64,000 nt of DNA from Enterobacter phage EspM4VN, in sequence record LC373201.2; one strand, given 5' to 3'. A program made the translations under genes and the position numbers. The notes beneath the pieces were generated by a model. The model saw only the letters and a list, made by a program, of their open reading frames with translations, did not search any database and was not told where the DNA came from. Within the stretch, counting starts at the first letter, position 1. The number at the start of each line of letters is the position of its first letter. Positions 1,377 through 64,000 of the stretch are shown here, piece by piece.

Positions 1377-1384
1377 CTAAATAC
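1377..1384 (+). promoter_or_regulatory. T4-type late promoter -10 element variant (CTAAATAC) embedded in palindrome AAATACCCCTA (1379-1389) / TAGGGGTATTT (1407-1417)
   Basis: CTAAATAC lies about 37 nt upstream of the GTG start at 1421. The same motif recurs upstream of other structural genes. A perfect 11-nt inverted repeat flanks a 17-nt spacer. Confidence 0.55.
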
Positions 1385-1420
1385 CCCTAGATGACATGAA
1401 CACATTTAGGGGTATTTGAA

Positions 1421-4750: not shown

Positions 4751-4753
4751 ACA

Positions 4754-4775
4754 AAAGCCCCTTCGGGGGCTTCAT
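4754..4775 (+). terminator. intrinsic terminator hairpin (AAGCCCC-TTCG-GGGGCTT)
   Basis: GC stem with a TTCG loop immediately after the stop of the 1421..4750 gene. Confidence 0.6.
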
Positions 4776-4795
4776 GAGAACAACAGGAGATTCAC

Positions 4796-6603: not shown

Positions 6604-6611
6604 CTAAATAC
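6604..6611 (+). promoter_or_regulatory. late promoter variant CTAAATAC within palindrome AAATACCCCATA (6606-6617) / TATGGGGTAT (6631-6640)
   Basis: Same module as at 1377. It sits immediately upstream of the tailspike gene start at 6647. Confidence 0.55.
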
Positions 6612-6646
6612 CCCATATTGGCAAATCCTCTATGGGGTATCTTCAA

Positions 6647-9211
6647 ATGACCAGAAACGTCGAGAGCATCTTTGGAGCGGTCGTAACAGCGCCGCACCAG
6701 ATTCCATACACTTACACAGCAACGGGCGGGGAGACGTTTATCTCCCTCCCGTTCTATCCCGTTACGGGCTTTGTTACAATCAATGGTGGTGTCCAAGTTC
6801 CTGTGGACAACTATGAAATCGATGGGAACACGATCAACCTGGGTCGGACTCTGGAACCAGAAGACGTTGTATACTGTCTGTTTGACAAGATTCTGTCGCC
6901 GGAAGATTATGCAGACGGCATCCGCATCTACAAGTTCCAGGCCGTCGGTACTGAAACATCGTTCACTCCCGACTTCACCACATACGGTGTGCAGACCCTG
7001 TACATTGATGGGAAGTTCCAGGTTCCAGACATCAACTACAGCTACAGCAGCACGACGGGCACTGTGAGTTTCCTCACGGGTTCACCAACGGCTGGAGTTT
7101 GGGTTGTGGCCGAGATGTCTGTGAAGCAGCCGAATATCAGCCCTCTGTTTGACCGCACCATTCAAGAAGTCGGTCGTTCTACCAACCTGGCAGACACTGC
7201 TGTTATTCTGAGCACTGACATTGGTACTCCTCTTGATGATAAAACTGTCATCTATGATGTTGTGGCTGAGAAGATTTATGGTCTTCCAACCCTACCTTCT
7301 AACGCCTACATCAACACCGTTTCCAACGGACAGTTAACTTACTCTCCTGGCAACGTCACTGTGGATCTTGTGGCAATTCCAGATTCTGCCGTGAAACTTA
7401 AAGAAGAACTGGCTGAGTTTGATGGTGAATCATTAGTTGGTGTTTGCCCTACTGTTGCCATATTACGAACCACTGAACCAAAAGCTAACAAGCAACTGAT
7501 CACTGTTCGCGAATACGCTGCTGATACAGGAAAGGGCGGCGGGCGTTTTCGCGCAGTATTGGACGGTTCCAGTTATACAGATAATAGTGGCACTATCATC
7601 AAGACCACAGGCGGAGCGGCGTGGATCAGGGTTAATGATGTTGTCAGTGTTACCGACTTCGGTGCAGTTTCTGACTTTAATCGAGACACCAATGTTGGTA
7701 CAGATAACACTACTGCATTCCAGGCAGCAATTGATTATTGCAAAGTATCTCATAAGGCATTGTTTGTACCTTCTGGTTGGTATCTGGTGAGTGGGAATCT
7801 TACTGCTACTTACGCCATCGTTATGTATGGTGAAGGCGCGAATGGCGTGTCAATAACAACTGCTGCACAACAGGATTCTCCATTTATTGGTTCTGTTATT
7901 GTTGGCGGTAACACTACCGGGTATACACTTAATGTTAGCCCACCTAACTACCAGTTTGGTTTGTCCATTCGTAACGTTGCATTTTATGGTTTACCCGCAC
8001 AACGTTCTAATGTTAACCACAAAGCATTGCGACTTCATAACACAGGTTTACAGGGTTATGTGGAGAACGTGGCAATTTCTGGTTATGGAGGTAATGGCCT
8101 GGTTATTGGTTATCTACAAGATACCCATATTATCAGTTTGTTCATTGAACGTTGTGGTACGCTTGACGTCGCAGCTATTAAGTTTGAAGCACGAGCAAAC
8201 TATGTGTACTTCCAGGATTGTCTGATGATGGCTTGCCATTATTTTGTAGATAACACCGATGCTACTTTGTTTGGTCGTTATATTTTCTGGAGTGGATGTC
8301 ATATCGAGCATGGCGACTACAACGGTGCTCTTGGTGCCGAGTGGGACTTCTACTACAACAAGACTCCGTTTAATATCGGCGCAGGCTCAGATTGGTCTTT
8401 CCAGAACTGTATCTTTATCCCAGTATCCAACTCTGGTCTGGCCACGTCTTTGGGTATTTCGCGTTTGTCAACCCCATATTTTATGGTTTGTTCTGGTGAA
8501 CGTTTTAACATGGTCAATTGCCGTTTCAATGCCCCACGAGATTCTGTATCCAGCTTAGCCCTAACTGGCCCTAACTCCAGAACAGCTATGATTACAGATA
8601 CTATTTTCCAAGGTGCTGATGGTGGCCGTCCTTGTATTGACGCCTACTACGCAGAAATCACTAACTGTACTTTCAACCTGGATATCTCGGCTTATACCGA
8701 CCGTTGTTCTGGTGTGTATGTTCGTCGTGGTGGTGCAGTGAAAAGTTGTAAATTCCGTCTTGGAGCAACTACTGGTTCGCGTCGCACCCTCGGGCACTTA
8801 ATCCTCACAGACGACGACCGTTATGAGGCAATTAATGTGAGTGGTAACACTTACCCAGATACCACTTATGTGAATGCCTTTGTTCACCGTGGTTGTACTA
8901 TTTCTGGGGAAGATGGTGGAACCCCTCGTTTGGTTTCCATTACTACAACCCAGAGCATTGACCTTAGCTTGTATCCAACTAACGTTAACTTCTGGGTTAC
9001 TGCTGCTGTTACTATCACTGATATTCTTAATGGCCAGTATGGTCGCAGGGTCAGCGTTATTGCCAACACTGCTGGTGCGGTGATTAATACTACTGGTAAC
9101 GTTTATCCGAAGGGTAACGTTAACTACACCATGACAGCAGGCGTACCTGTTGAGTTCCGTGGAATGCTGGATATCTCTGGAAACAGAAAGATGTTCCAAC
9201 TTGCTGGATAA
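6647..9211 (+). CDS. tailspike protein (third TSP)
   Basis: 854 aa from ATG 6647. The ATG at 6632 given by the ORF track lies inside the palindrome and is less likely to be the start. The protein carries the XD-like module DDKTVIYDVVAEKIYGLPTLPSNAYINTVSNGQLTYSPGNV. The C-terminal two-thirds is beta-helix-like. Confidence 0.65.
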   Translation: MTRNVESIFGAVVTAPHQIPYTYTATGGETFISLPFYPVTGFVTINGGVQVPVDNYEIDGNTINLGRTLEPEDVVYCLFDKILSPEDYADGIRIYKFQAVGTETSFTPDFTTYGVQTLYIDGKFQVPDINYSYSSTTGTVSFLTGSPTAGVWVVAEMSVKQPNISPLFDRTIQEVGRSTNLADTAVILSTDIGTPLDDKTVIYDVVAEKIYGLPTLPSNAYINTVSNGQLTYSPGNVTVDLVAIPDSAVKLKEELAEFDGESLVGVCPTVAILRTTEPKANKQLITVREYAADTGKGGGRFRAVLDGSSYTDNSGTIIKTTGGAAWIRVNDVVSVTDFGAVSDFNRDTNVGTDNTTAFQAAIDYCKVSHKALFVPSGWYLVSGNLTATYAIVMYGEGANGVSITTAAQQDSPFIGSVIVGGNTTGYTLNVSPPNYQFGLSIRNVAFYGLPAQRSNVNHKALRLHNTGLQGYVENVAISGYGGNGLVIGYLQDTHIISLFIERCGTLDVAAIKFEARANYVYFQDCLMMACHYFVDNTDATLFGRYIFWSGCHIEHGDYNGALGAEWDFYYNKTPFNIGAGSDWSFQNCIFIPVSNSGLATSLGISRLSTPYFMVCSGERFNMVNCRFNAPRDSVSSLALTGPNSRTAMITDTIFQGADGGRPCIDAYYAEITNCTFNLDISAYTDRCSGVYVRRGGAVKSCKFRLGATTGSRRTLGHLILTDDDRYEAINVSGNTYPDTTYVNAFVHRGCTISGEDGGTPRLVSITTTQSIDLSLYPTNVNFWVTAAVTITDILNGQYGRRVSVIANTAGAVINTTGNVYPKGNVNYTMTAGVPVEFRGMLDISGNRKMFQLAG

Positions 9212-9224
9212 GAATTGTAAAACC

Positions 9225-9246
9225 AAAGCCCTCTCCGGAGGGCTTT
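9225..9246 (+). terminator. intrinsic terminator hairpin (AAAGCCCTC-CGGA-GGGCTTT)
   Basis: Perfect stem after the stop of the 6647..9211 gene. Confidence 0.6.
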
Positions 9247-9275
9247 AACATGACTAAAACAACAGGAGATTCTTT

Positions 9276-11851: not shown

Positions 11852-11880
11852 AAGCCCTCTTCGGAGGGCTTATTTCTTTC
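11852..11880 (+). terminator. intrinsic terminator (AAGCCCTC-TTCG-GAGGGCTT followed by a T-run)
   Basis: GC stem with a TTCG loop and then TATTTCTTTC. Confidence 0.65.
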
Positions 11881-11901: not shown

Positions 11902-11909
11902 CTAAATAT
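11902..11909 (+). promoter_or_regulatory. late promoter variant CTAAATAT upstream of the 1586-aa structural gene
   Basis: The sequence gtatACTAAATATctctataatgg lies about 35 nt before ATG 11943. Confidence 0.45.
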
Positions 11910-18146: not shown

Positions 18147-18175
18147 AAAGGCGGGATTACCCGCCCTTCTTTTAG
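18147..18175. terminator. bidirectional terminator hairpin (AAAGGCGGG-ATTAC-CCGCCCTT followed by CTTTT) between convergent genes
   Basis: The hairpin sits between the gp13 stop (18144) and the 3' end of the minus-strand ORF (18172). Confidence 0.55.
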
Positions 18176-18413: not shown

Positions 18414-18421
18414 CTAAATAC
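18414..18421 (+). promoter_or_regulatory. late promoter variant CTAAATAC with inverted repeat AATACCTTCAA / TTGAGGGTATT
   Basis: The sequence cgaCTAAATACcttcaaaattgagggtattgatATG lies immediately upstream of the gp14-like gene. Confidence 0.5.
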
Positions 18422-18443
18422 CTTCAAAATTGAGGGTATTGAT

Positions 18444-19096: not shown

Positions 19097-19792
19097 ATGG
19101 CCAGACCATTTGAAAATTACTTCTACCATGAGTCGCTGCTGAAATACATCAATCTGTTCGCCACCATCATGTCTGATCTGAAGGTGGACACAGAGCGCGG
19201 TCTTATGGAAGTCCCGTTACACATGGCCATCGGGCGACGCAATGACCTCAATCGCAACGTGCCGTCCAATATGTTGCCGTTTGCGACGTTCAGCTTTGGG
19301 CAATTTGAACCGAATAAGAACGTGACGAAGTCATTCCACAACCGCCAGAGCACCCAGACAGCAGGGGCGAAGCAACGCATCCCCATCAATATCGATTTTG
19401 AGTACAACATTCGGACGAAGAAATTGATCGAGATGCTTCAGGTGTTGGAACAGATCTATTCTGTGTTCACGCCATCTCTGGACTGCGCTATCAAGGACAA
19501 CGATACACTACAGCAAGACCAGAAGATCAAGCTGCAGCTGACAGGTCACCAGATGTCCGACAACTGGGAGGGAGACGCTTCCGAATCACCACATGTTGAT
19601 TGCACTTTCACCTTCGTGGTCAGTGGGTTCATCTATGGATACGACTATTGGGTGGACAACGGCGGCGGTGGGGATCCTAACGGGATCAAAGAGATAATTA
19701 TCGAAATGTCTAATGATTTGAAAACGCCGTGGTCGGAACTGCCAGAGTGGTTCCGCGTCGATAAAGACGGTGTACATCATCCTGGAGATTGA
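19097..19792 (+). CDS. gp15: tail sheath stabiliser / tail terminator, T4 gp15 homologue
   Basis: The N-terminus FENYFYHESLLKYINLFATIMSDLKVD aligns with T4 gp15 FGYFYNSSFRRYATLMGDLFSNIQIKR. LPFATFSFGQFEPNKNV aligns with LPRINLHLVDFSYNAPFKTN. Confidence 0.65.
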   Translation: MARPFENYFYHESLLKYINLFATIMSDLKVDTERGLMEVPLHMAIGRRNDLNRNVPSNMLPFATFSFGQFEPNKNVTKSFHNRQSTQTAGAKQRIPINIDFEYNIRTKKLIEMLQVLEQIYSVFTPSLDCAIKDNDTLQQDQKIKLQLTGHQMSDNWEGDASESPHVDCTFTFVVSGFIYGYDYWVDNGGGGDPNGIKEIIIEMSNDLKTPWSELPEWFRVDKDGVHHPGD

Positions 19793-19794
19793 TT

Positions 19795-20490
19795 ATGAGT
19801 GCTATGTCAGAACGCCTATTGTCCACCCTCGGTGCTATCCAAGCGCGGGATGAGGTCGCTCAGGAAGTGATGGAGAAGACCGCGCCTGTGGCTGGGAAAG
19901 ATTATGATCCAGATACTGGAGTGTGGTTGGGTGAAAAGCCTGCAGGGTATGAGCCTGTGGTGTTCCCTCCTTCTCTGGACCCAGAAGAGCTGAAGTCCAA
20001 GGATTCCAAAGTCCCAGACTTTGACGACACGGACGCCACCACGGATTACAAACGCATCCGCGACACGACTTACGCCATGCAGGAAGCCACGATGTTCATG
20101 ATGGGACAGGCGGCCAAACTCGCGACGACCACAGAAGCGCCTCGGGCGTTTACAGTCTTCAAGGAGTTGGGTGAACTCATGCGCGGCCTGAACAAAGACT
20201 TGATGGAGAACCAGAAGACCATCAAGGCAGTTACAGGCGACAAAGAGCCTCCAACAGATGACACGACTGTCGAGGTCACAACATCTCCAGATGGTGCAAC
20301 CAAGGTTACAGTCGGGAAACAGGCGCGTTCTTCTCGAGATCTACTCAAGACAATCGAGGATGCCAAGAAGCGTGCTGACGAGCGTACTCAGTCCAAGGTT
20401 AAGCCGAACGAAGAAGTGATAGACGTTCAGGCTGAACAACCTGTGGAACCGAAGGATGAAGGTGAAGACAATGGCGTATCAGAAGCGTGA
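19795..20490 (+). CDS. putative terminase small subunit (T4 gp16 position)
   Basis: GGAG RBS and ATG 19795. The acidic, helical 232-aa protein lies directly upstream of the large terminase and overlaps it, as gp16 does in T4. Confidence 0.45.
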   Translation: MSAMSERLLSTLGAIQARDEVAQEVMEKTAPVAGKDYDPDTGVWLGEKPAGYEPVVFPPSLDPEELKSKDSKVPDFDDTDATTDYKRIRDTTYAMQEATMFMMGQAAKLATTTEAPRAFTVFKELGELMRGLNKDLMENQKTIKAVTGDKEPPTDDTTVEVTTSPDGATKVTVGKQARSSRDLLKTIEDAKKRADERTQSKVKPNEEVIDVQAEQPVEPKDEGEDNGVSEA

Positions 20491-22681
20491 TATAGAATAT
20501 GCCCCGCTCAAGACGGGGTTCAAGATAGAAGACGTCAAATTGCGTATGGACCAAACGTTCATGCGCAAGCCGTCTGTGCGCGCCCCTCGTGTCCAGTTGA
20601 TGTTGACAGATGAGCAGGAAGATGAATTCGTCGAATGCGCGATGGATGCCCATTACTTCGCTGCCAACTACTACAAGATCACGACTATCGATAAAGGCTT
20701 CATCCTATTCGATATGCACGACTATCAGAAGCAGTTGTTCCATGACTTCCAGGATCACCGCTTCAACGCCGTTGTCCAGGCACGTCAGTCAGGTAAATGT
20801 GTGAAGGGTGACAGCATCGTCGAGGTCTACGACACAGTCAGCCAAGAAGAGTTTAAAGTCACCATCGAGGAGCTTCACAGCCGCTTCGAGGGACCGAACC
20901 ACGCCGAGCCACTGAACGCCTTTGGCAAACACGATAAGTTCGTAGACAGCCGCTTCGGCAAGCGTTATTTCGTTCGCTGTGATATAGGCTGGGTGCCTGT
21001 CATCGCCGCGCACAAGACCAAGCAGTATCAGGAATATGTTGTCGTCACTTCCAGCGGCCGTCGTATCAACGTGGCCGATGATCACATGTTCTTCAATCAG
21101 AATATGAAGGAAGTGTTTGCCAAAGATCTGGTTGCTGGTTCACAGCTGATGACCGAAGAAGGTCTAGAAGAAGTCGTTGAGGTATGGCAGACTGGTGAGA
21201 TGCACCACATGTATGACCTACAGGTGAAATCCAGCGACCAGCGCTACTACACCAACGGCTTCCTCAGTCATAACACGACTGTTGTGGCTGCGTTCCTTCT
21301 CTGGTATGCGATGTTCCACTCTGACAAAGAGATCGCGGTACTGGCGAACAAAGAGAAGCAGGCGATTGAAATCCTTGACCGTATTCGTAAGGCGTATCAG
21401 GATTTGCCATTCTTCATCCAGCAGGGCTGTGAGAAGTTCGGCTCCACGCTCATCGAATTCGAGAACGGCTCGAAGATATACGCCTATGCAACATCTTCTG
21501 ACTCCATCCGTGGTCGATCTGTATCGCTCCTGTATGTGGACGAAGTGGCGTTCATCGAAAACGACTTTGAATTCTGGGAGTCAACATTCCCTGCGATTGC
21601 ATCTGCAGAGACTTCACGTTGTATCCTGACCAGTACACCGAAAGGCCAGCGCGGGTTGTTCTACGACATCGTCACCAAGGCGAACCCAGAACATCCTCAG
21701 TACAACGACTTCAATCTCACAGAGGTTCCATGGTATCGTGTGCCAACATACACCAAGGATCCAAACTGGGAATCCAAGCAGAGGGCGAAGCTGGGCGATG
21801 CACGTTTCGATCAGGAATTTGGCATCAAGTTCCGTGGGTCGGTCGGTTCACTTATCCCGGCCAAGTGCCTGGACAAGATGACCTCGAAGCTGTATCAGGA
21901 GCCGAACGAGTTCACCAAGATCTATCACGACTACGATCCGAAGCGAATCTATATGGGTATCGCAGATACAGGCAAGGGCGTCGAGGGGGATTATTCTGTG
22001 CTGACCATTATCGACATCACAGACTATCCTCACAAGATCGCAGCCAAGTATCGAAACAACACGATACCTCCAATGATGTATGCGTACACAATCGCCGATA
22101 TGGGCGAGAAGTATGGGACGTGTCCAATGTTGGTAGAAACCAACAACGACGTGGGTGGACAGGTAATCACAATTCTATATCAGGAAATTGAATATCCAGA
22201 GATCATCTTCACCACAACAGATGCGAAGGGTACTGGTAAGCGAATCGGCGGTAGGCGGCCTGAACCTGGTATCAACACCAACAAGAAGGTGCGCACAAAC
22301 GGCTGTGCCAACCTGAAAGCCCTGATCGAAAGGGAGATGCTGGTTGTTGACGATCAAGACACGATAGATGAACTCAGTACATTCGTATGGACTGGGACAA
22401 GGTATGAAGCCGATGATGGTTGTCATGATGACTGTGTAATGCCTCTTGTGCTGTATGCATGGGCGGTGAAACAAGAATGGTTTAGTGACCTCACCAATTC
22501 CAGTATCTCAGTCGACATGAGAGGCCGCTTGTCTGCGATGGAAGAATCGCAGATGATGCCTTTCGGTGGTGTGTTGTCGGCTCCTGATCCGTTCTCTGTG
22601 GAGAGTGTGCCAGGATTTGGTGGCGTGCAGGTTTATGACGAACGTTCTGGCATGTCCATGGAAGAATGGCTGAGACGGTGA
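20471..22681 (+). CDS. terL: terminase large subunit (T4 gp17 homologue) interrupted by an in-frame mini-intein in the Walker-A motif
   Basis: ARQSGK|[intein]|TTVVAAFLLW reconstitutes the T4 gp17 P-loop SRQLGKTTVVAIFLAHF. Downstream regions align with gp17 (KEIAVLANKEKQAIEILDRIRKAYQDLP ... GSKIYAYATSSDSIRGRSVSLLYVDEVAFI). The nuclease-domain region is also conserved. The start is taken at ATG 20471; GTG 20456 is also possible. Confidence 0.9.
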   Translation: MAYQKRDIEYAPLKTGFKIEDVKLRMDQTFMRKPSVRAPRVQLMLTDEQEDEFVECAMDAHYFAANYYKITTIDKGFILFDMHDYQKQLFHDFQDHRFNAVVQARQSGKCVKGDSIVEVYDTVSQEEFKVTIEELHSRFEGPNHAEPLNAFGKHDKFVDSRFGKRYFVRCDIGWVPVIAAHKTKQYQEYVVVTSSGRRINVADDHMFFNQNMKEVFAKDLVAGSQLMTEEGLEEVVEVWQTGEMHHMYDLQVKSSDQRYYTNGFLSHNTTVVAAFLLWYAMFHSDKEIAVLANKEKQAIEILDRIRKAYQDLPFFIQQGCEKFGSTLIEFENGSKIYAYATSSDSIRGRSVSLLYVDEVAFIENDFEFWESTFPAIASAETSRCILTSTPKGQRGLFYDIVTKANPEHPQYNDFNLTEVPWYRVPTYTKDPNWESKQRAKLGDARFDQEFGIKFRGSVGSLIPAKCLDKMTSKLYQEPNEFTKIYHDYDPKRIYMGIADTGKGVEGDYSVLTIIDITDYPHKIAAKYRNNTIPPMMYAYTIADMGEKYGTCPMLVETNNDVGGQVITILYQEIEYPEIIFTTTDAKGTGKRIGGRRPEPGINTNKKVRTNGCANLKALIEREMLVVDDQDTIDELSTFVWTGTRYEADDGCHDDCVMPLVLYAWAVKQEWFSDLTNSSISVDMRGRLSAMEESQMMPFGGVLSAPDPFSVESVPGFGGVQVYDERSGMSMEEWLRR
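20798..21274 (+). mobile_element. mini-intein (159 aa, no homing-endonuclease domain) inserted between Lys and Thr of the terminase P-loop
   Basis: It begins with Cys (CVKGDSIVEV, block A). It contains the block-B-like NVADDHMFF and ends YDLQVKSSDQRYYTNGFLSHN (block F/G, terminal His-Asn), followed by Thr (+1). Removing it restores a contiguous Walker-A motif. Confidence 0.85.
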
Positions 22682-22684
22682 TCA

Positions 22685-22692
22685 CTAAATAT
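22685..22692 (+). promoter_or_regulatory. late promoter variant CTAAATAT upstream of the tail sheath gene
   Basis: The sequence atcaCTAAATATctttcaaattgag lies about 40 nt before ATG 22733. Confidence 0.45.
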
Positions 22693-24636: not shown

Positions 24637-24665
24637 AAAGCCCGCTCCGGCGGGCAATTTCTTTG
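24637..24665 (+). terminator. intrinsic terminator (AAAGCCCGC-TCCG-GCGGGC, then AATTTCTTTG)
   Basis: Hairpin plus a T-rich tail after the sheath gene stop. Confidence 0.55.
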
Positions 24666-24670
24666 AAGAC

Positions 24671-24678
24671 CTAAATAG
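24671..24678 (+). promoter_or_regulatory. late promoter variant CTAAATAG upstream of the tail tube gene
   Basis: The sequence gaagacCTAAATAGaattgtg lies about 30 nt before ATG 24709. Confidence 0.4.
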
Positions 24679-27000: not shown

Positions 27001-27038
27001 TTCGACTAAGTATAGAAAACATTTGAGAGGATATGATC

Positions 27039-27529: not shown

Positions 27530-28198
27530 ATGATGAAACTGTTGCGTGAGATCACGGCGATAGGGAAAGACCTCCAAATCGGTGAAAGCACCACCTCCAC
27601 TGGGGGTAAGGCTATGTTCATCGAAGGTCCATTCGTGATGTGTAATCAGGTGAACCGTAATGGACGCAACTACGATCTCCAGAAAGTGGGCATGCCAGCT
27701 GTCGAAGCATATGACAAAGAGTATGTTCAAGATCGTCGCGCAATCGGTGAACTCAAACATCCCGACTACCCTTTCCCAGATATTGCTGAAGCTGCGCTGA
27801 AGACCGAGAGCCTCCGTTGGGAGGGCACGAACGCAATCGGTCGAGCGCGTGTGCTAAATACACCAAAAGGCCAGATCATTCGTGCTCTGGCTGAAGCAGA
27901 CTTCAACTTGGCCGTGTCTACACGTGGCCTTGGTGAGACCAAGTCAGTAAACGGTTATGATGACGTTCAACCTGGCTTTATGCTCACTGCTGTTGATGCA
28001 GTCGACCGTCCTTCTGGACAAGTTTGTTATGTAAAGGCTGTGAGCGAATCTGTTGAATGGCAGCTTGATGAATCTTCAGGGATTTGGGTTCCTAAGGACA
28101 TCAAAGGGCAAGTGGTCGATTCATTGGTGAAAACCAATATTCAGTTCGAAGACGACTTCCTGCGCCGCCTCGATATCGCATTGAGACATCTGGGCTGA
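27530..28198 (+). CDS. gp21: prohead core protease, T4 gp21 homologue
   Basis: RAIGELKHPDYPFPDIAEAAL ... GRARVLNTPKGQIIRALAEADFNLAVSTRGLGE aligns with T4 gp21 QALGELNHPPRANVDPMQAAI ... GRARVIEGDHGPGDKLAANIRAGWIPGVSSRGLGS. Confidence 0.85.
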   Translation: MMKLLREITAIGKDLQIGESTTSTGGKAMFIEGPFVMCNQVNRNGRNYDLQKVGMPAVEAYDKEYVQDRRAIGELKHPDYPFPDIAEAALKTESLRWEGTNAIGRARVLNTPKGQIIRALAEADFNLAVSTRGLGETKSVNGYDDVQPGFMLTAVDAVDRPSGQVCYVKAVSESVEWQLDESSGIWVPKDIKGQVVDSLVKTNIQFEDDFLRRLDIALRHLG

Positions 28199-28209
28199 AT
28201 TCAGCCTCA

Positions 28210-28217
28210 CTAAATAC
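28210..28217 (+). promoter_or_regulatory. late promoter variant CTAAATAC upstream of the scaffold gene
   Basis: The sequence cctcaCTAAATACtgaaaatcgttcag lies about 27 nt before ATG 28244. It includes a short ctgaa/ttcag inverted repeat. Confidence 0.45.
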
Positions 28218-28243
28218 TGAAAATCGTTCAGAAGGAAATAATC

Positions 28244-29119
28244 ATGAAACCTGAATTGCAAAAACTGTTTGAGGGCGTTAACGGCCTCAGCACCGACTTC
28301 CTGGATAAAGTGTCCGGTCTGCTGGAATCTAAAGTAGAAGCCGCTCGCCTGACCGCTATTCAAGAAACCGAAAACGCTGCCAACGTTGAGCGCCTGCGTC
28401 TGGTTGAAGCTCATCAGTCTGAGATTGCTCAGCTGAAAGAGTCTCACTTGATGGAGATCGCAACCAAAGTTGACAGCTTCCTGAACGCTGTTGTAGAAGA
28501 GTGGGCTAACACCAACGCTCCTGCAATCGATGCTCAGATCAAGCGTGAAGCAGCTGAAAACCTGCTGACTGGCCTGACTGGCGTTCTGAAAGAAGCTGGT
28601 ATCAACTTTGCGACTGACGAAAACGGCCAGATCGCTGCGCTGACTGCCCGCCTGACTGAAGCAGAACAACGTGCTGCGGCTGCTGAAAGCGAAAACCGTC
28701 AAATCAAAGAAGCCGCGAATGCAACTCTGCGCGACTCTGTGATCACCCGTATCTGTGAAGGTATGGTCGACACCAAGAAAGCAACGGTTGTCAATCTGCT
28801 GGAAGCGGTGCAGTTCACCACCGAAAGCGAATTCGCTTCCCGCGTACACACCTTCCGCAACCTGGTAGAAGGTAAGTCCGCGAAGAAAGAAGGCGATGAC
28901 GATGACTTCCAGGACAAAGTCGGCGGCAAAGACGGTGACGACGACAATAAAGACAAAGGCGACAAAGACAAAGTCGACGAAGGCAAAAAGCCTAAGAAAG
29001 AAGGCGATGACGACAAAGACGATGATAAAGACGATGAAGATGAAACAGACAAAGAGCTGAAAGAATCTATCAAGCGTCAGTTGGAAGACTACAATCGTCG
29101 CTTCGGCATCAACGGCTAA
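28244..29119 (+). CDS. gp22: prohead scaffold protein (T4 gp22 position), coiled-coil with a polyacidic/KD-rich C-terminus
   Basis: 291 aa. The protein is helical and A/E/L-rich. A KKEGDDDDFQDKVGGKDGDDDNKDKGDKDK ... DDDKDDEDE tract lies near the C-terminus. The position matches T4 gene 22. Confidence 0.7.
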   Translation: MKPELQKLFEGVNGLSTDFLDKVSGLLESKVEAARLTAIQETENAANVERLRLVEAHQSEIAQLKESHLMEIATKVDSFLNAVVEEWANTNAPAIDAQIKREAAENLLTGLTGVLKEAGINFATDENGQIAALTARLTEAEQRAAAAESENRQIKEAANATLRDSVITRICEGMVDTKKATVVNLLEAVQFTTESEFASRVHTFRNLVEGKSAKKEGDDDDFQDKVGGKDGDDDNKDKGDKDKVDEGKKPKKEGDDDKDDDKDDEDETDKELKESIKRQLEDYNRRFGING

Positions 29120-29131
29120 TTTTAGCAGCCA

Positions 29132-29158
29132 CAGCCCTCGAAAGGGGGCTTGATTTTG
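29132..29158 (+). terminator. weak, imperfect hairpin (AGCCCTC-GAAA-GGGGGCT, then TGATTTTG) after the scaffold gene
   Basis: Imperfect stem, seen directly. Confidence 0.35.
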
Positions 29159-29201
29159 AACTACTAAGTAATTTCAACTTAACTGAATATCAATGTAAGG
29201 A

Positions 29202-30533
29202 ATGACCATCATGGCTAAGAAACTTGTTACCGAACAAATGCGCGAGCAGTGGCTGCCAGTTCTTCAGAAAGAATCTGAAAGTATCCAGCCGCTTTCTGCC
29301 GAAAACGTTGCCGTCCGCCTGCTGCAAAACCAGGCTGAGTGGAACGCCAAAAACCTGGGCGAATCCGACGCTCCTGGTTCTGTAAACGCCTCTGTGGGCA
29401 AATGGCAGCCAGTCCTGATCGACATGGCTAAACGTCTGGCTCCGATCAACATCGCGATGGACTTCTTCGGTGTTCAGCCGCTGTCTGGTCCTGACGGTCA
29501 GATCTTTGCTCTGCGTGCTCGCCAGGGTATCGCCGACGGTTCCAACACCCAACAGTCCCGTAAAGAACTGTTCATGCAGGAAGCTGATTCTGGCTACTCT
29601 GGTGACGGTACTGTACAGGCTGGTGACCCATCTGGCTTTACTCAGGCCGAGATCGAAGGTTCCGGCGCTGGCGTGACCACCATCGGTAAAGGCATGCCAA
29701 CCACCGACGCTGAACTGCTGGGTACTACCACCAACCCTTGGGCGCGTGTTGGTATCACCGTTCAGAAAGCAACCGTGACTGCGAAGTCTCGCGGCCTGTA
29801 CGCTGACTACAGCCACGAGCTGCGTCAGGACATGATGGCGATCCACGGCGAAGACGTTGACAGCATCCTGTCCGACGTGATGGTAACTGAAATTCAGGCC
29901 GAGATGAACCGTGAGTTTATCCGCACCATGAACTTCAGCGCAGTACGCTTCAAAAAATTCGGCGCAAACGGCGTTGTAGACATCTCCACCGACATCTCCG
30001 GTCGTTGGGCGCTGGAAAAATGGAAGTACATGACTTTCATGCTGGAAGTCGAAGCGAACGGCATCGGTGTTGACACCCGTCGTGGTAAAGGCAACCGTGT
30101 TCTGTGTTCTCCGAACGTAGCATCCGCTCTGGCGATGTCCGGCATGCTGGATTACGCTCCGGCACTGCAGGAAAACACCAAGCTGGCGATCGACCCAACT
30201 GGCCAGACCTTCGCTGGTGTTCTGTCTAACGGTATGCGTGTCTACATCGACCCGTATGCAGTAGCAGAGTACATCACCCTGGCATACAAAGGCGCGACCG
30301 CGCTGGATGCTGGTATCTTCTTCGCGCCGTATGTGCCGCTGGAAATGTACCGCACCCAGGGTGAAACCACCTTCAGCCCACGTATGGCGTTCAAAACTCG
30401 TTACGGCATCTGCGCGAACCCATTCGTACAGATCCCAGCGAACCAGGACCCACAGGTTTACGTGACTGCCGACGGTATCGCTCAGGACAGCAACCCTTAC
30501 TTCCGTAAAGGTCTGATCAAAGGTCTGTTCTAA
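29202..30533 (+). CDS. gp23: major capsid protein, T4 gp23 homologue
   Basis: MTIMAKKL ...; PINIAMDFFGVQPLSGPDGQIFALRA aligns with T4 gp23 PNLIAFDICGVQPMNSPTGQVFALRA. Further matches include DNPWNEMGFRID, KSRGLYADYSHELRQDM, NRVLCSPNVASAL, YAPYVPLEMYRTQ and MAFKTRYGICANPF. Confidence 0.9.
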   Translation: MTIMAKKLVTEQMREQWLPVLQKESESIQPLSAENVAVRLLQNQAEWNAKNLGESDAPGSVNASVGKWQPVLIDMAKRLAPINIAMDFFGVQPLSGPDGQIFALRARQGIADGSNTQQSRKELFMQEADSGYSGDGTVQAGDPSGFTQAEIEGSGAGVTTIGKGMPTTDAELLGTTTNPWARVGITVQKATVTAKSRGLYADYSHELRQDMMAIHGEDVDSILSDVMVTEIQAEMNREFIRTMNFSAVRFKKFGANGVVDISTDISGRWALEKWKYMTFMLEVEANGIGVDTRRGKGNRVLCSPNVASALAMSGMLDYAPALQENTKLAIDPTGQTFAGVLSNGMRVYIDPYAVAEYITLAYKGATALDAGIFFAPYVPLEMYRTQGETTFSPRMAFKTRYGICANPFVQIPANQDPQVYVTADGIAQDSNPYFRKGLIKGLF

Positions 30534-34378: not shown

Positions 34379-34419
34379 CCTGTCATAAATAATCTGAGTT
34401 CACACAGCGGAGATACATC

Positions 34420-34587
34420 ATGTTTGTCGTCAATCTGTTCTGCTATATCTTCACGGCGTACTTCCTGGGAGCAGTGGGGTTCGAGACCTACAATGACCTG
34501 AAGGATGGGGAATACGCCACCCGAACGGTCTATGCCAAGAAGTTTGTTCGCAAGTTCTGTTCAAACTTCGTTTACAAACTGCCCTGA
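34420..34587 (+). CDS. small membrane protein (55 aa); absent from the ORF track
   Basis: GGAG RBS 8 nt before ATG 34420. The product MFVVNLFCYIFTAYFLGAVGF is hydrophobic. Confidence 0.35.
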   Translation: MFVVNLFCYIFTAYFLGAVGFETYNDLKDGEYATRTVYAKKFVRKFCSNFVYKLP

Positions 34588-34590
34588 TCC

Positions 34591-34598
34591 CTAAATAC
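34591..34598 (+). promoter_or_regulatory. late promoter variant CTAAATAC within palindrome AAATACCCCCAT / ATGGGGTATTT (34610-34620)
   Basis: Same module as at 1377 and 6604. The gene start is ATG 34625. Confidence 0.55.
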
Positions 34599-34624
34599 CC
34601 CCATCATCCATGGGGTATTTTCTT

Positions 34625-37029: not shown

Positions 37030-37775
37030 TGGCATCTCTCCAAGCCCTGCGCAAGCTGAACGACTTCGAAAATCGCCATTACACATTCCAGCAGTACGAA
37101 CTTCCTCATAAGGAACTGGAGTGTGTGACGACGGAGAACGGTCGTCATTATGTGTCACCAACTGGTGTCAAGCTGACGTCTGTCACGACTATGCTGGGGC
37201 GCACTGGTGATCATGAATGGCTTGAGGCTTGGAGGGAGAAGCTTGGTGCAGAGGCCGCCGACCTCGAGACCATGCGTTGTGCCGACCGAGGGGAGAAGCT
37301 GCATCTTGCATGTGAACTGTATTTGAAGAACCGCCCAATGAAAGAAGTGTTGGAAGCGGCTGGCGAATACATGTTCATGTTCAAGCAGCTGTTCCCCTAC
37401 CTGAACAAGATGACAAAGATCTATGCTCAGGAGATCCCATTATATAGCGAGGTGCTTGGCCTCGCAGGTCGAGTGGACCTTATCGGGGTTTATGAGGGCA
37501 AGCCTGCCATCATCGACTTCAAGACGTCGAACATCATGAAGACGCGGGGAATGATCGAGGACTACAGTATCCAGCTGTGCTTGTACTCTGTTATGTTCCA
37601 GCAGATGTTCGGTGTCAAGATCACCCGCCTCATCAATGTGATTGCCAACGAGTCTTCCCCTCTACCAACCGTCATTGAGTTCAACCGTGATGACATCCTG
37701 ACAAAGATGTTTGAGCGTGTTCGTCTGTACCATCGCATGGATAAAGAACAGAACGGAGTCTGGCCGGATCGCTAA
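37029..37775 (+). CDS. PD-(D/E)xK family nuclease (RecB/Cas4-like exonuclease fold)
   Basis: GRVDLIGVYEGKPAIIDFKTS carries the D ... D/E-x-K catalytic signature. ATGA stop/start coupling with the upstream gene. Confidence 0.5.
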   Translation: MASLQALRKLNDFENRHYTFQQYELPHKELECVTTENGRHYVSPTGVKLTSVTTMLGRTGDHEWLEAWREKLGAEAADLETMRCADRGEKLHLACELYLKNRPMKEVLEAAGEYMFMFKQLFPYLNKMTKIYAQEIPLYSEVLGLAGRVDLIGVYEGKPAIIDFKTSNIMKTRGMIEDYSIQLCLYSVMFQQMFGVKITRLINVIANESSPLPTVIEFNRDDILTKMFERVRLYHRMDKEQNGVWPDR

Positions 37776-37779
37776 ATAC
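37772..37779 (+). promoter_or_regulatory. late promoter variant CTAAATAC with AAATACCCCATA arm upstream of uvsW
   Basis: The sequence cgCTAAATACcccataatccttgggagattttgtATG lies just before 37804. Confidence 0.45.
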
Positions 37780-37803
37780 CCCATAATCCTTGGGAGATTT
37801 TGT

Positions 37804-39311
37804 ATGGCAGACATTCAGATTGTTAAGGTTAACGAAGTCCGCATGCGTTGCATCGCAGATCTTTCTATCAGGGAAGAACTGAATGACTACTTCAAATTCG
37901 AAGACCCGAACTTCGTTCCCAACCCTTCTCTAAATGGGACGGGGTTGTTCGCTTGTTTACCAAGTCATCCGGCCTGATCGATATCGGCCTACTGTTTGAG
38001 GTGTTCAAGTTCTGCAAGAACAACAAATACACCATCGAACTGGATCCGGCTCTGAAGTACATTCAGGACATCCCAGATGAAGAAATCCATGACTTCATCG
38101 ACAGCCTGCATCCAAAGATTCGCACCGAAAATCACGAATACATCGATGCCGAGACCCGTGACTATCAGTACGACACCATCGCCAAGGCTATGCGTCAAAC
38201 CAGATGCGTCTGTGAACTGGCTACGAGTGCTGGTAAGTCCTTTATTCTGTATGTCATGGCGCGGTACTACAGGCAGCGCAGAGAAGCTCTCGAAAGCCCT
38301 CTGAAGACGCTTATCGTGGTGCCGTCGATTCACCTGGTTACTCAGCTGTACGACAACTTTGAAGAGTATGCACACGGCAGTGATTGGAAGCCCGTTGTCA
38401 ACACTCAGCTGATCTATGAGGGTGCGACTAAACAGATCAGCAAGCCGATCGTCATCAGTACATGGCAGGGCATTCAAGACCAGCCGAAGGAATGGTTCCA
38501 TCAGTTCGGTGACATCGTGGTGGATGAAGTGCACACCTCCAAGTCTGAGAAGCTGTCCTACATCCTGAACAACTGCATCTATGCAGATCAGCGTCTGGGT
38601 GTTACGGGTACGCTGGCAAACACGAAGGTCGCAGGCCTGCAGGTCGTGGCCCACTTCGGGGCATACCACAAGATCATCACGGCTCGCGACCTTATCAATC
38701 TCGGGTATGCCACCGACATCAAGGTGAAGATGATCCAGCTGAAGCACACTTCAGCAGATGCAGTTGGTCTGGACGGGGATTATACCAAGGAAATAGAATA
38801 CCTTATTACACACCAATCCCGCAACGAACTGATCGCCAAGATGGCACTGAATCTGAAAGGGAACGTGGCGATCATGTTCGAGCGTATTGATGGCCACATG
38901 ATGGTCGTGTATGATATGCTGAGCGCAGTTAAGCCCAACGTGTTTGTCATCAACGGGGAAGTGAAGATCGAAGACCGCCGCCGCATACAGAAAGCGATGG
39001 AGGATGGAGAAGATATCACCCTGTTGGCTTCATATGGGACAATGCAGCAGGGTGTGTCAATCAAGAAGTTACATCACCTTGTGCTGGCGCACCCGAGCAA
39101 GTCGTATATCCGCGTCATACAGACATTGGGTCGTCTGATGCGTCAGCACTCCTCTAAGGACGTCGCATGGATATGGGATTTAGTGGATGATGTGTCTTAC
39201 AACGCAAGCACGAACCACGCTATCAGGCACTCTCATGAGCGTTACAAGTTCTACCTGACAGAGCGCCACCCTGTGGAGTTCATGAAGGTGGCGCTGGGTA
39301 ATCACGATTGA
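37804..39311 (+). CDS. uvsW: UvsW-type DExH helicase (T4 UvsW homologue); frame broken by an apparent 1-nt deletion near 37926-37935
   Basis: Frame 1 encodes MADIQIVKVNEVRMRCIADLSIREELNDYFKFEDPNFVPNP, which aligns with T4 UvsW MDIKVHFHDFSHVRIDCEESTFHELRDFFSFEADGYRFNP. The -1 frame continues ...KWDGVVRLF ... FKFCKNNKYTIELD, which aligns with NWDGRIRLL ... KKFCDNFGYKAWID. After that come the Q-motif DYQ, Walker-A ATSAGKS, VVDEVH, TWQGIQDQPKEWFHQFG, and KKLHHLVLAHPSKS ... WDLVDD, all UvsW-like. Confidence 0.8.
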
Positions 39312-40023: not shown

Positions 40024-40692
40024 ATGCAAGAGATCACTCTCTCCGAACGTACACTTCAGTTGCTGGCCAACTTTGAGACCATCAACCCGTCAATCGTTCT
40101 GACACCGGGTAAGATGCTGCGCAGCATTAACGATTCGTCTACTGTAATCGCCGTGGCGCAGATCGAAGAAGACTTCCCGTTTGAGTTTCCGATCCTGGAC
40201 CTGACAAAGCTGCTGGCCATCCAGCGCCTGCCTTCCTTCAAAGGCGGTAAAGCCGAATTCCATCAGGACTACATCCTGCTGAAAGGTGAAAGCTCCCAGC
40301 TGCAGTTCTGGCGTTCTGCTAAAGAACTCACTGTTGTTCCGGCTGACACTATTGAACTGCCGTCTGTCGACTTTGAAGCGATTATCACTCCAGAAAAGAT
40401 GAAAGAACTGACCCGCGCCTGTTCTACCCTCGGCCACAAGACTGTACGCCTTGTTGCTCAGGGTGGCAAAACCCGCCTGGTTGCGACCACCACTACACTG
40501 GATAACTCCAACAACTACACCGTTGAGCTGGGTGAAACCGCGCTGCCGGACTTCGTAATGCCGCTGGATGTTGCGAACCTGAAGATGATCGAAGGCAACT
40601 ACACTCTGCGTGCCTGCGCTGAACTGCAGATGGTGAACTTCCAGTCCTCCGACGCGACGATCAATTACTTCGTCGGCGCACAGATTGAGTAA
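40024..40692 (+). CDS. gp45: sliding clamp, T4 gp45 homologue
   Basis: 222 aa. The N-terminal LLANFETINPSIVL aligns with T4 gp45 LLKNFATINSGIML. The two-domain clamp length and the position upstream of gp44/62 both fit. Confidence 0.75.
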   Translation: MQEITLSERTLQLLANFETINPSIVLTPGKMLRSINDSSTVIAVAQIEEDFPFEFPILDLTKLLAIQRLPSFKGGKAEFHQDYILLKGESSQLQFWRSAKELTVVPADTIELPSVDFEAIITPEKMKELTRACSTLGHKTVRLVAQGGKTRLVATTTTLDNSNNYTVELGETALPDFVMPLDVANLKMIEGNYTLRACAELQMVNFQSSDATINYFVGAQIE

Positions 40693-61958: not shown

Positions 61959-62722
61959 TAACCAGCAACGAACGACAGATGGCACTTGACGTTCGGTTCC
62001 AGTGATGTCACAGAAACCGTCATACTGTCCGTATCTTGGCTGAAGTTAATCTCGGCGAGTGGTTTGGTCTGCACATGGTTGTACGTGCTGTAGAACAGAT
62101 CCTCGCCGCGATACCCGACTTTTCCGTCGGTGTCCTGCCAATGGCCCAGTGTCTCATCGTAGACATGCACTCGGAACTCAATCATATGGAAGAGCGCCTT
62201 GGGGATGTCCTTGAGTACGCTGGTGCCAATCACAGGCATCTCAATGGAAGAGTCATTGGAGTTCCCTTCATAGACCGAAGCCCATGCAAAGGTGGGATCT
62301 CCCCCAGCAACAGGGGTTCGCTTCCAGTATTGGAACTCAGGGTTGCCTGAAGTGTTCTTCTGAAGTAGAATGACCTCGCCACCTGTGAAGTTCGTGGTGT
62401 CAATGTCATCTCGCTCAAGTTCATCGGCCGGAGATCCAATAAATTTCCAGCCTTCGCGATCCAGAAGAGACTTATAATAGTCGGTGAACACGTTGCTGTC
62501 TTCTGCGGCGTTGATGGCGTCTTTGAGGCCTTCGCCAGTCACCATCTCGTTGAGACGGAGCCACATGTCTTTGACGGCGGACGCAGCTGCGACCTGCCCA
62601 ACAGTCCCACCTGCAGTGTAATCATAGACGATATCAGTCAGCTTGATAGCGTCATTGATAGACAAGAGCAGTTGCTCAATCTGCGGTGCGGTGAGACTGA
62701 AACGATATGCGCGGGGTGCCAT
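61955..62722 (-). CDS. hypothetical protein (256 aa) on the opposite strand, divergent from rnh
   Basis: Minus-strand ATG at 62722 with a GAAAGAGGA RBS. The ORF track extends the ORF further upstream without RBS support. Confidence 0.5.
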   Translation of the reverse strand: MAPRAYRFSLTAPQIEQLLLSINDAIKLTDIVYDYTAGGTVGQVAAASAVKDMWLRLNEMVTGEGLKDAINAAEDSNVFTDYYKSLLDREGWKFIGSPADELERDDIDTTNFTGGEVILLQKNTSGNPEFQYWKRTPVAGGDPTFAWASVYEGNSNDSSIEMPVIGTSVLKDIPKALFHMIEFRVHVYDETLGHWQDTDGKVGYRGEDLFYSTYNHVQTKPLAEINFSQDTDSMTVSVTSLEPNVKCHLSFVAGY

Positions 62723-62767
62723 AGTTTCATTCCTCTTTCTATAAAACCAGTTTGGGATATTTATATC

Positions 62768-63295: not shown

Positions 63296-63307
63296 GGGTT
63301 CCCACAA

Positions 63308-64000
63308 TGGGTATGAATTATGTTGATCGTGGCGAGAATGTCGTCAAATATTTCACGGACGAAGATAACGAGCGTGTCATCAGTATCCTTCGTGATTGGA
63401 TCCCCGCTCGCAAGAAAGCACTTGCCGAGGGCACCAGGCTTCCAAAGATCCCCAACTATGTTGCTCTGCAGGTCCAGCGCATCATCACCAAGATGAGCAC
63501 CCGCTACAACTATCGTGATTATCCCTTCCGCGAAGACATGGTCTCCGAAGCAATCGTCAACATCCTGCGTTACCTCCACACTTTCGACGTCGGCCACATT
63601 GGAAAGAAAGGGAAGATCAACTTCTTCTCTTGGGTGACCATGTGCGCTGATCGATCATTCGCCCGTAAGCTGAACATCGAAGAAGAGCACACGTACATCA
63701 AATTGCGCTCCTTTGAAGAGGCGGGTGGGTTCGCAGGCCTGGCCGACGACCCCGACTTCCAACAAGAAACCTTCGTCGATGCCACAGGGATTGGTATGGA
63801 CTTCCGTGAACGCATCGGCAACTTTGAGAACAAGAAGGACGCTCAAAGACAGAAGGAAAGGGAGAAGGTGGAGACAGCCCGCGCCGCCGAATCGAACAAA
63901 AAGATTGCGAAAGGCATACTTCAATACATGTCCCAGGGTAAGAATACCCCAACAGCACAGGCCGAAGACGATTCAGATCAGGACTTTGGCAAAACCCAAT
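63308..64000 (+). CDS. gp55: late-transcription sigma factor, T4 gp55 homologue (5' partial; open to the window end)
   Basis: ILRDWIPARKKALAEGTRLPKIPNYVALQVQRIITKMSTRYNYRDYPFREDMVSEAIVNILRYLHTFD aligns with T4 gp55 IIDWKTELANNK ... [48 protein letters not shown]. The ORF is absent from the track because there is no stop within the window. Confidence 0.75.

Follow-up and report, generated by a model that had tools for sequence, protein, structure and literature searches.

In bacteriophage T4, an RNA hairpin that hides the ribosome-binding site (RBS) of the lysozyme gene e lowers lysozyme synthesis ~100-fold on early read-through RNA (McPheeters et al., 1986, reviewed in PMC3014915), while late promoters located in the 5' strand of this hairpin yield RNA that can be translated (PMC3014915). 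RBS-sequestering hairpins have also been demonstrated experimentally for T4 soc, gene 49 and I-TevI, and these genes and mobE of phage Aeh1 share a logic in which early or middle read-through RNA is silent and a late promoter lies near or in the 5' strand (PMC3014915). Here we analyze palindromes that overlap CTAAATA boxes in a 64,000-nucleotide (nt) stretch of the genome of Enterobacter phage EspM4VN (LC373201.2; this whole stretch is called the window, and its positions are used below), a member of the Ackermannviridae (Vi1-like phages) whose conserved parts are 83-93% identical to Limestonevirus and Agtrevirus genomes. These palindromes are real, non-random and conserved; judging from their sequence, we propose, at a probability of roughly 55%, that they are RBS-masking hairpins of the T4 gene e type which carry a late promoter in the 5' strand.

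The T4 gene e leader, UAUAAAUA-CCUUCU-AUAAAUACUU (loop)-AGGAGG-UAUUAUG, has nearly the layout of the site upstream of the neck protein gene gp14 in the window, CUAAAUA-CCUUCA-AAAU-UGAGGG-UAUU. In both phages a TATAAATA-type box lies in the 5' strand, a pyrimidine tract after the box pairs with the Shine-Dalgarno (SD) sequence, and a U-rich spacer pairs with the A-rich box. When subjected to the same calculation as the window sites, the T4 leader folds with -14.9 kcal/mol (z -4.4), and opening its RBS costs 15.8 kcal/mol on read-through RNA versus 4.2 kcal/mol on late RNA, similar to the 12-21 versus 5.5-7.5 kcal/mol found in the window. The systems differ in that gene e encodes lysozyme and has two tandem boxes, whereas the window has one box at each of five sites within 38 kb, preceding genes for tail spikes, the neck protein gp14, a DUF7217 protein and uvsW. 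In addition, unlike gene e, three of the window's sites lie downstream of genes that are themselves late; the T4 late transcripts are known to lack the 5' strand, which in the window is a prediction; and the T4 case is experimentally proven, whereas the window sites are predicted. Of the other described cases, T4 soc also encodes a virion protein, but soc, gene 49, I-TevI and mobE are likened to the window sites by description and not by sequence, and the homing-endonuclease examples serve intron splicing or mobility, which is irrelevant here.

The T4 late box TATAAATA spans -13 to -6 and is followed directly by an AT-rich segment, and an in silico consensus for Aeromonas phage Aeh1 has a/gC at -13/-12 instead of TA (PMC2988020). 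The boxes of the window have the same aCTAAATA form as the Aeh1 promoter, a likeness that concerns the box only, as hairpins are not part of the comparison. The sequence CTAAATAY occurs nine times in the window (at 1377, 6604, 11902, 18414, 22685, 27854, 28210, 34591 and 37772), always on the + strand, versus 1.33 occurrences expected, and at least nine were found in none of 100 shuffles, so the enrichment on which the initial annotation depended is present. Eight of 11 CTAAATA matches are intergenic, though intergenic DNA makes up 5.7% of the window (binomial p 1.5e-8). Across the 10 intergenic late sites the TAAATA core is invariant, with C instead of A at -12, and the distance from the motif C to the start codon is 30-49 nt at intergenic sites, as opposed to the 25-40 nt given initially. 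Eight of the nine positions in that annotation are right; the one at 24671 reads CTAAATAG and not CTAAATA[CT], and it did not list the match at 27854 (within gp21) or an ATAAATA box at 34385.

The boxes resemble TATAAATA over 8 bp and have no -35 element, which is the form of a gp55-dependent promoter. The genes 3' of them include tail-spike genes, gp14, gp18, gp19, gp22 and uvsW, with T4 late-gene homologs assigned by synteny; not all are structural, since the box at 37772 precedes the uvsW helicase gene. Some orthologous sites in Kuttervirus have a perfect TATAAATA, and the LIMEstone1 record annotates putative late promoters at equivalent intergenic sites. A gp55 homolog starts at 63307 (63308 in the initial annotation) and reaches the window's end, and gp33, which has been reported for phage Ag3 (PMC3121705), is absent from the 64-kb window. 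Because position, strand, T4 late-gene homologs, gp55, the Kuttervirus TATAAATA sites and the LIMEstone1 annotations agree, we infer that the CTAAATA boxes are T4-type gp55-dependent late promoters, as first proposed.

At five of the 10 late sites the box is part of a predicted RNA hairpin, and the other five lack a significant one (Table 1; fold z-scores were computed against shuffled sequences). The inverted repeats initially noted at 1377, 6604, 18414 and 34591 are recovered by these folds, together with a weaker one at 37772. In the minimum-energy folds of the five sites, TAAATA and the next 4-5 nt (CCCC or CCTTC) are paired, with TAAATA opposite the U-rich spacer TATTT, and the SD, 6-8 nt before the start codon, is within the helix while the start codon itself is outside. 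The right arm thus carries a G-rich SD, as had been noted, but the distance of 12-13 nt to the start codon belongs to the beginning of the G-run; the arm ends only 2-6 nt before that codon (for example, 1418 versus GTG 1421). A scan of the whole window against Rfam at gathering thresholds gave no match. As a separate possibility, the right arm was considered as a late promoter on the reverse strand and rejected, since its reverse complements are CAAATA or GAAATA and not TAAATA.

If T4 spacing is used to predict the transcription start, the 5 nt after TAAATA are positions -5 to -1 and are not transcribed. On RNA that reads through from upstream, both strands of the hairpin would be present, the RNA would fold and the RBS would be hidden. 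RNA from the embedded promoter would start at the 6th nt after the box, so that it would lack the C-rich strand and its RBS would be open; efficient translation of the five genes would then depend on RNA from their own late promoters. Three elements of this scheme are predictions: where late transcription starts, that read-through RNA exists, and how translation is affected. At 34.6 kb the hairpin is followed by UAUUUUCUU and probably terminates read-through transcripts as well.

The sequences of the arms, their folds, their conservation and the associated energy differences are observations. The cost of opening the region from the SD through the start codon was calculated on read-through RNA and on RNA from the predicted late start (Table 1). 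At the five late sites without hairpins this cost shifts by only -0.4 to 3.0 kcal/mol between the two RNAs, and for 23 control genes cut at a comparable distance it changes by 0.09 ± 1.6 kcal/mol, with opening costs of 2-11 kcal/mol. An opening energy of at least 11.5 kcal/mol is found at five of 10 late sites versus none of the 23 controls (Fisher p 0.0011). Per-nucleotide unpaired probabilities are less informative than opening energies because the G-runs pair weakly elsewhere in late RNA. Pairing specificity was assessed with an 8-nt segment made up of the end of the box and the 6 nt that follow it: these nucleotides pair better with the cognate leader than with non-cognate late leaders (-7.5 versus -4.7 kcal/mol, permutation p 0.001), and the same is found in each of six related genomes (p 0.0002-0.002). 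The initial annotation had suggested a terminator or processing hairpin on read-through RNA; a hairpin is indeed predicted to fold on that RNA, and the role that best suits it is RBS masking.

Five genera retain the hairpins: Limestonevirus, Agtrevirus, Kuttervirus, Taipeivirus and Miltonvirus. Each of the seven genomes with the respective gene has the hairpin in front of its first tail-spike gene, of one or two others of its tail-spike genes, and of the DUF7217 gene, and the element of the 6604 type precedes one or two tail-spike genes in Ag3, LIMEstone1, CBA120, 0507-KN2-1 and fGh-Ecl02. The tail-spike and DUF7217 hairpins range from -16 to -21 kcal/mol, except for DUF7217 in the window (-10.6) and in LIMEstone1 (-11.2); the DUF7217 hairpin is at -17 to -19 kcal/mol in the other five of its six relatives. 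All 21 IMG/VR loci for the gene have this hairpin too. Its box varies (CTAAATA, TTAAATA, ATAAATA, TATAAATA) while the stem stays, and its inner pairs differ by genus (CAT/ATG, CA/TG, TCAC/GTGG, TACA/TGTG), so that the hairpin of Miltonvirus, for example, survives with other inner pairs. Paired cells make up 98.6% of the DUF7217 alignment, in which two pairs shift from C-G to U.G and one differs on both sides. At the uvsW site, LIMEstone1 carries T instead of C at one position, which lets U pair with the A of GGGAG; the pairing strands in Kuttervirus and Taipeivirus are CUCCA with UGGGG or UGGGAG, and Miltonvirus has a different short hairpin that leaves the SD uncovered. More distant orthologs were sought for covariation, and a metagenome scan gave only three near-identical loci, while IMG/VR supplied 21-24 loci per gene, all within the same five genera.

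Several observations weigh against RBS masking as the function of these palindromes. Within the window, the DUF7217 and uvsW hairpins are not significant relative to shuffled sequences (z -1.4 and -1.1), and a significant hairpin is missing from half of the 10 late sites, three of these five also lacking an upstream terminator. Covariation within orthologs is thin (nine of 12 DUF7217 pairs are invariant), and with covariation this modest the support comes mostly from conservation and from comparison between sites. Sense folds are barely better than antisense folds (mean -1.0 kcal/mol; sense better in 16 of 29), so selection on RNA and on DNA is not separated by this measure. The G-run finds weaker partners in the predicted late RNAs, so the RBS is not fully open there. 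Genes upstream of both tail-spike sites are themselves late, and gp14 already has a canonical terminator (18150-18165) and a divergent gene on its 5' side. Finally, the literature searched contains no transcript 5' or 3' ends and no translation data for any member of the Ackermannviridae.

These points bear differently on individual sites. There is no canonical terminator 5' of four of the five hairpin sites, and no such terminator separates the uvsW and DUF7217 sites from the non-structural genes that precede them in the same direction; LIMEstone1 annotates an early promoter 5' of the operon that holds its DUF7217 gene. The early-versus-late logic of T4 gene e fits uvsW, which follows uvsY and the exonuclease gene, and the DUF7217 gene, which follows small non-structural genes. 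In T4 the uvsW helicase must appear late, since it unwinds origin R-loops. Such a switch fails to explain the two tail-spike sites, because the genes upstream of them are late, and does not suit gp14, with its upstream terminator and divergent gene, and it is a matter of speculation that the hairpins at the tail-spike and gp14 sites provide gene-by-gene insulation or set dosage within late transcription. Transcription starting at the ATAAATA box at 34385 would run into the 34.6 kb hairpin, where its RNA would be masked or terminated, and for this site an insulator therefore suits better than a purely temporal switch. A tentative extension, for which we hold out some hope but would not bet, is that a subset of Ackermannviridae late promoters are self-bypassing insulators, in which the hairpin silences the RBS and, at one site or more, terminates incoming transcription, while RNA from the promoter in its 5' arm cannot form it; each tail-spike, neck, DUF7217 and uvsW gene would be expressed only from its own gp55 promoter, even amid other late genes. 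If this were true, protein ratios would be set gene by gene, beyond the early/late switch of T4, and the published motif CTAAATAcCcc would be redefined as a promoter plus an anti-Shine-Dalgarno strand.

The alternative that survives best, though we consider it unlikely, is that the hairpins serve in the first place as intrinsic (rho-independent) terminators of the upstream transcription unit, with RNA from the 5'-arm promoter escaping termination and the SD overlap being secondary. They share with such terminators the A-rich segment, GC stem and U-rich tail, the usual order of A-tract, stem and U-tract, and at the DUF7217 site the likeness is close: a stem at 34599-34615 with the tail TATTTTCTTA was flagged as terminator-like in a scan, and its U-tract has 6 T in 8 positions in all seven genomes, comparable with the 5-6 of the window's canonical terminators. 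The Menlow record labels the orthologous 34.6 kb hairpin a terminator with the RBS of the next gene inside it, and LIMEstone1 has a 28-nt terminator annotated beside the start codon of its DUF7217 ortholog. The coordinates of the latter miss the hairpin but match its length exactly, which suggests that they are shifted. Elsewhere the pattern breaks down. Among the 8 nt after the G-run, T residues number 2-5 at the first tail-spike site, 3-5 at the second and 2-4 at gp14, and the tails differ among genera (TATCAAAA, TATTACAA, TAAAGTCA) while the SD pairing stays. A loop of 3-8 nt is typical of the class; it is 4 nt at gp14 and 5-10 nt at DUF7217, but 9 and 13 nt at the tail-spike sites, which are the two strongest. 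The tail-spike, gp14 and uvsW sites were not flagged by the terminator scan, and the phage's canonical terminators are of another type, with a GC-rich stem, a 4-nt loop and a strong T-run. A conserved U-tract follows the stem at the DUF7217 site alone and is lacking at the other four. An upstream canonical terminator is missing at four of five hairpin sites and at three of five non-hairpin sites, which is no clear pattern of one substituting for the other. Because only the DUF7217 hairpin fits the terminator pattern and has the conserved U-tract, termination is likely a second role at the 34.6 kb site and not the general function.

We regard it as quite improbable that the palindromes have no dedicated function, an A-rich box and a U-rich spacer after a G-rich SD being complementary by chance and conserved through ancestry and the exchange of tail-spike cassettes. 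Sequence conservation is high and true compensatory change rare, the tail-spike element has been duplicated along with the conserved N-terminal module, and half of the late sites have no hairpin, all as chance complementarity would have it. It would not account for the preference of cognate over non-cognate pairing in all seven genomes, for the absence of a comparably occluded RBS from every control gene, for the Miltonvirus DUF7217 hairpin with its altered inner pairs, or for the functional use of the same layout in T4; moreover, a C-rich -5 to -1 segment is atypical for T4-type late promoters and co-occurs with G-run SDs.

Very improbable is an action of the palindrome on DNA, modulating the late promoter either as an operator that binds a dimeric protein of phage or host (the dimeric DNA-binding site of the initial annotation) or by forming a cruciform. 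In its favor, the arms make up an almost perfect inverted repeat that overlaps the -10 element, and sense and antisense folds are similarly stable in many orthologs. Against it, arm spacing is 4 nt at gp14, 9 nt at the first and 13 nt at the second tail-spike site and 4-10 nt among DUF7217 orthologs, the inner stems are site-specific (CTAGATG, ATA, TTCA, CAT) yet self-complementary, the stem imperfections are G.T or T.G oppositions, which pair in RNA and not in DNA (at the first tail-spike site, all gp14 sites, Miltonvirus DUF7217 and Kuttervirus and Taipeivirus uvsW), the single C/A opposition (uvsW in the window) falls in an internal loop, and the right arm always coincides with the RBS.

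The linear motif is already published, and the palindrome is the new part. It is said that the motif was first defined in the 2012 Archives of Virology paper by Adriaenssens and colleagues on the genus 'Viunalikevirus'. For EspM4VN, CTAAATAcCcc has been listed at 65377, 70604, 98591 and 101772 (PMC7283392), which are window positions 1377, 6604, 34591 and 37772 (64000 is added to a window position to obtain the genome coordinate used there, so the window covers about 64001-128000 of that genome). The LIMEstone paper gives 33 late promoters found by similarity to T4, the CBA120 paper calls the family's late promoter unidentified, and the Ag3 paper used TATAAATA with one mismatch (PMC3121705). 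The EspM4VN, Ag3, CBA120 and LIMEstone papers do not mention a hairpin, palindrome or stem at this element, and RBS-masking hairpins have apparently not been described before for the Ackermannviridae. In the window, CCCC follows the box at only four sites, those with GGGG or GGGAG in the leader. A C-tract is unexpected for a promoter of this kind because T4 late promoters are AT-rich in that segment, and the 'cCcc' of the published motif is better read as the anti-Shine-Dalgarno strand of the hairpin than as part of the promoter.

The hairpin design is probably another case of a known trick and not a new mechanism. If RBS masking is correct, it would explain why the published Vi1-like late motif has a C-rich tail that T4 late promoters lack, carry the mechanism of T4 gene e over to a second phage family and its tail-spike, neck and uvsW genes, and suggest how the uvsW helicase is not made from uvsY-exonuclease read-through RNA. 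It would also supply a concrete annotation rule for these genomes, in which public records place start codons within the hairpin and the same element is a 'terminator' in one phage and only a late promoter in another. Vi1-like phages serve as agents against Salmonella, E. coli O157, Dickeya and Klebsiella, and tail-spike gene swaps are made in them to alter host range; if RBS masking is correct, a swap that keeps or breaks the hairpin should alter expression of the spike.

Table 1. Putative late promoters, predicted hairpins, terminators and genes of the window. Genes were assigned by synteny with the annotated phages Ag3, LIMEstone1, CBA120, 0507-KN2-1, Kevin and fGh-Ecl02 and by profile hits; paired SD is the SD sequence within the helix.
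Feature	Position	Strand	Fold (kcal/mol; z)	RBS opening on read-through RNA (kcal/mol)	RBS opening on late RNA (kcal/mol)	Details or basis
Late box CTAAATAC	1377..1384	+				TAAATA 1378-1383; predicted -5..-1 CCCCT (1384-1388); predicted +1 A1389
Hairpin before first tail-spike gene (TSP1, GTG 1421)	1378..1418	+	-21.0; -6.25	21.0	7.0	5' arm 1378-1393, loop 1394-1402, 3' arm 1403-1418; 16 pairs including 2 G.U; paired SD GGGG 1409-1412 with CCCC 1384-1387
Late box CTAAATAC (6604-6611) and hairpin before tail-spike gene (ATG 6647)	6604..6640	+	-16.3; -3.3	16.7	7.5	arms 6608-6617 (ATACCCCATA) and 6631-6640 (TATGGGGTAT); paired SD GGGG 6634-6637; predicted -5..-1 CCCCA
Late box CTAAATAC (18414-18421) and hairpin before neck protein gene gp14 (18444)	18414..18440	+	-11.5; -3.0	14.0	6.0	arms 18417-18426 (AATACCTTCA) and 18431-18440 (TGAGGGTATT); one U.G; paired SD GAGGG 18432-18436; predicted -5..-1 CCTTC
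Late box CTAAATAC (34591-34598) and hairpin before DUF7217 gene (ATG 34625)	34591..34620	+	-10.6; -1.4	14.5	5.5	arms 34593-34601 and 34612-34620; paired SD GGGG 34612-34615, then TATTTTCTT; predicted -5..-1 CCCCC
Late box CTAAATAC (37772-37779) and weak interrupted hairpin before uvsW (37804)	37772..37800	+	-5.9; -1.1	11.6	6.5	hairpin 37774-37800: AAAU 37774-37777 and CCCA 37780-37783 pair with UGGG 37791-37794 and AUUU 37797-37800; paired SD GGGAG; predicted -5..-1 CCCCA; TAA of box is also the stop codon of the upstream exonuclease gene
Late box CTAAATAT	11902..11909	+	z -0.4			before 1586-amino-acid structural protein gene (11943); no significant hairpin; canonical terminator 11852-11871 precedes the box
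Late box CTAAATAT	22685..22692	+	z 0.1			before gp18 (22734); no significant hairpin
Late box variant CTAAATAG	24671..24678	+	z -0.7			before gp19 (24710); no significant hairpin; canonical terminator 24640-24655 precedes the box
Late box CTAAATAC	28210..28217	+				before prohead core gp22 (28244); 5-bp CUGAA/UUCAG hairpin only, SD uncovered; opening difference -0.4 kcal/mol
Late box variant ATAAATA	34385..34391	+				before 55-amino-acid open reading frame (ORF) 34420-34587 (phrog_4845, function unassigned); no hairpin
Canonical terminators	11852, 18150, 24640, 29133, plus two after tail-spike genes					
Tail-spike genes	starts 1421, 4796, 6647, 9276					synteny/profile; product of the first (GTG 1421) is a tail protein by profile hit
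1586-amino-acid structural protein gene	start 11943					synteny/profile
gp13 / gp14 / gp15	17392 / 18444 / 19097					synteny/profile
Terminase	19789-22681					synteny/profile
gp18 (tail sheath)	22734					synteny
gp19 (tail tube)	24710					synteny/profile
Portal	25309					synteny/profile
gp21 / gp22 / gp23	27530-30533					synteny/profile
DUF7217 protein gene	start ATG 34625					Pfam DUF7217; LIMEstone1 ortholog is a confirmed structural (virion) protein
gp3	36034					synteny/profile
uvsY	36577					synteny/profile
Exonuclease	37029					synteny/profile
uvsW	start ATG 37804					synteny/profile
gp45	40024-40692					synteny
gp55-type late sigma factor gene	63307..64000	+				phrog_234 'late sigma transcription factor', E 1.2e-51; continues beyond window end

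Public annotations at and near the DUF7217 site differ in where they begin the gene. In-frame ATG codons (within ATGGGG) are present in the right arm at 34610 and, at the second tail-spike site, at 6632, and longer versions of the DUF7217 gene that start 5' of the hairpin are annotated in 0507-KN2-1 (39156) and fGh-Ecl02 (38495); these longer starts are probably mis-called. In LIMEstone1, '-10' and 'terminator' features near ORF129 (7859-7924) are placed off TAAATA and off the hairpin, apparently through a shift in their coordinates. The ATAAATA box at 34385 is ~200 nt 5' of the next late box, which makes for a very short predicted late unit, and the 34.6 kb hairpin would either terminate or mask this unit (34385-34587).

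Hairpins near late boxes are also seen at other genes in related phages. In Serratia phage Kevin (Miltonvirus), other late leaders (7454-7492 and 19169-19209 of its genome) have box-proximal hairpins of their own, AAUCGAU...GAUC and AAUAGA...UCUAUU directly 5' of GGAG, which are absent at the orthologous sites of the window, and such pairing may have arisen more than once, at different genes in different lineages. In LIMEstone1 a different element, TAAATATATTTA, lies 5' of gp14 (~27021-27035); it is a perfect palindrome with TAAATA on both strands and is annotated as divergent late promoters.

Other matches to the late box in the window have less regular settings. The CTAAATAC at 27854-27861 is inside the gp21 protease coding region and its context is kept in Ag3, LIMEstone1 and fGh-Ecl02, where it is probably conserved as coding sequence, with an internal late promoter being possible, and a CTAAATA match at 4743 (CTAAATAA) shares nucleotides with the stop codon of the first tail-spike gene. 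The sole perfect TATAAATA of the window is on the - strand at 62758-62765, 35 nt 5' of an ORF at 61958-62722 (phrog_3833) that adjoins the gp55 gene on the opposite strand and has no hairpin of the kind described here. The tail-spike genes at 4796 and 9276, both of which start ATGAATCCGCAA, have near-identical leaders (4751-4795 and 9212-9275; aacaacaggagattc), each preceded by a canonical GC-rich terminator and with no clean late box, and in Ag3 and 0507-KN2-1 the sequence aCTAAATAag precedes the leader common to these two genes. Lastly, uvsW is present in two frames in the window, one from ATG 37804 to a stop at 37977 and a second ORF at 37953-39311. The split stems from one missing C in a C-run near 37923 (CCAACCC versus CCAACCCC in Ag3 and fGh-Ecl02), which reflects either an error in sequencing the homopolymer or a genuine frameshift.

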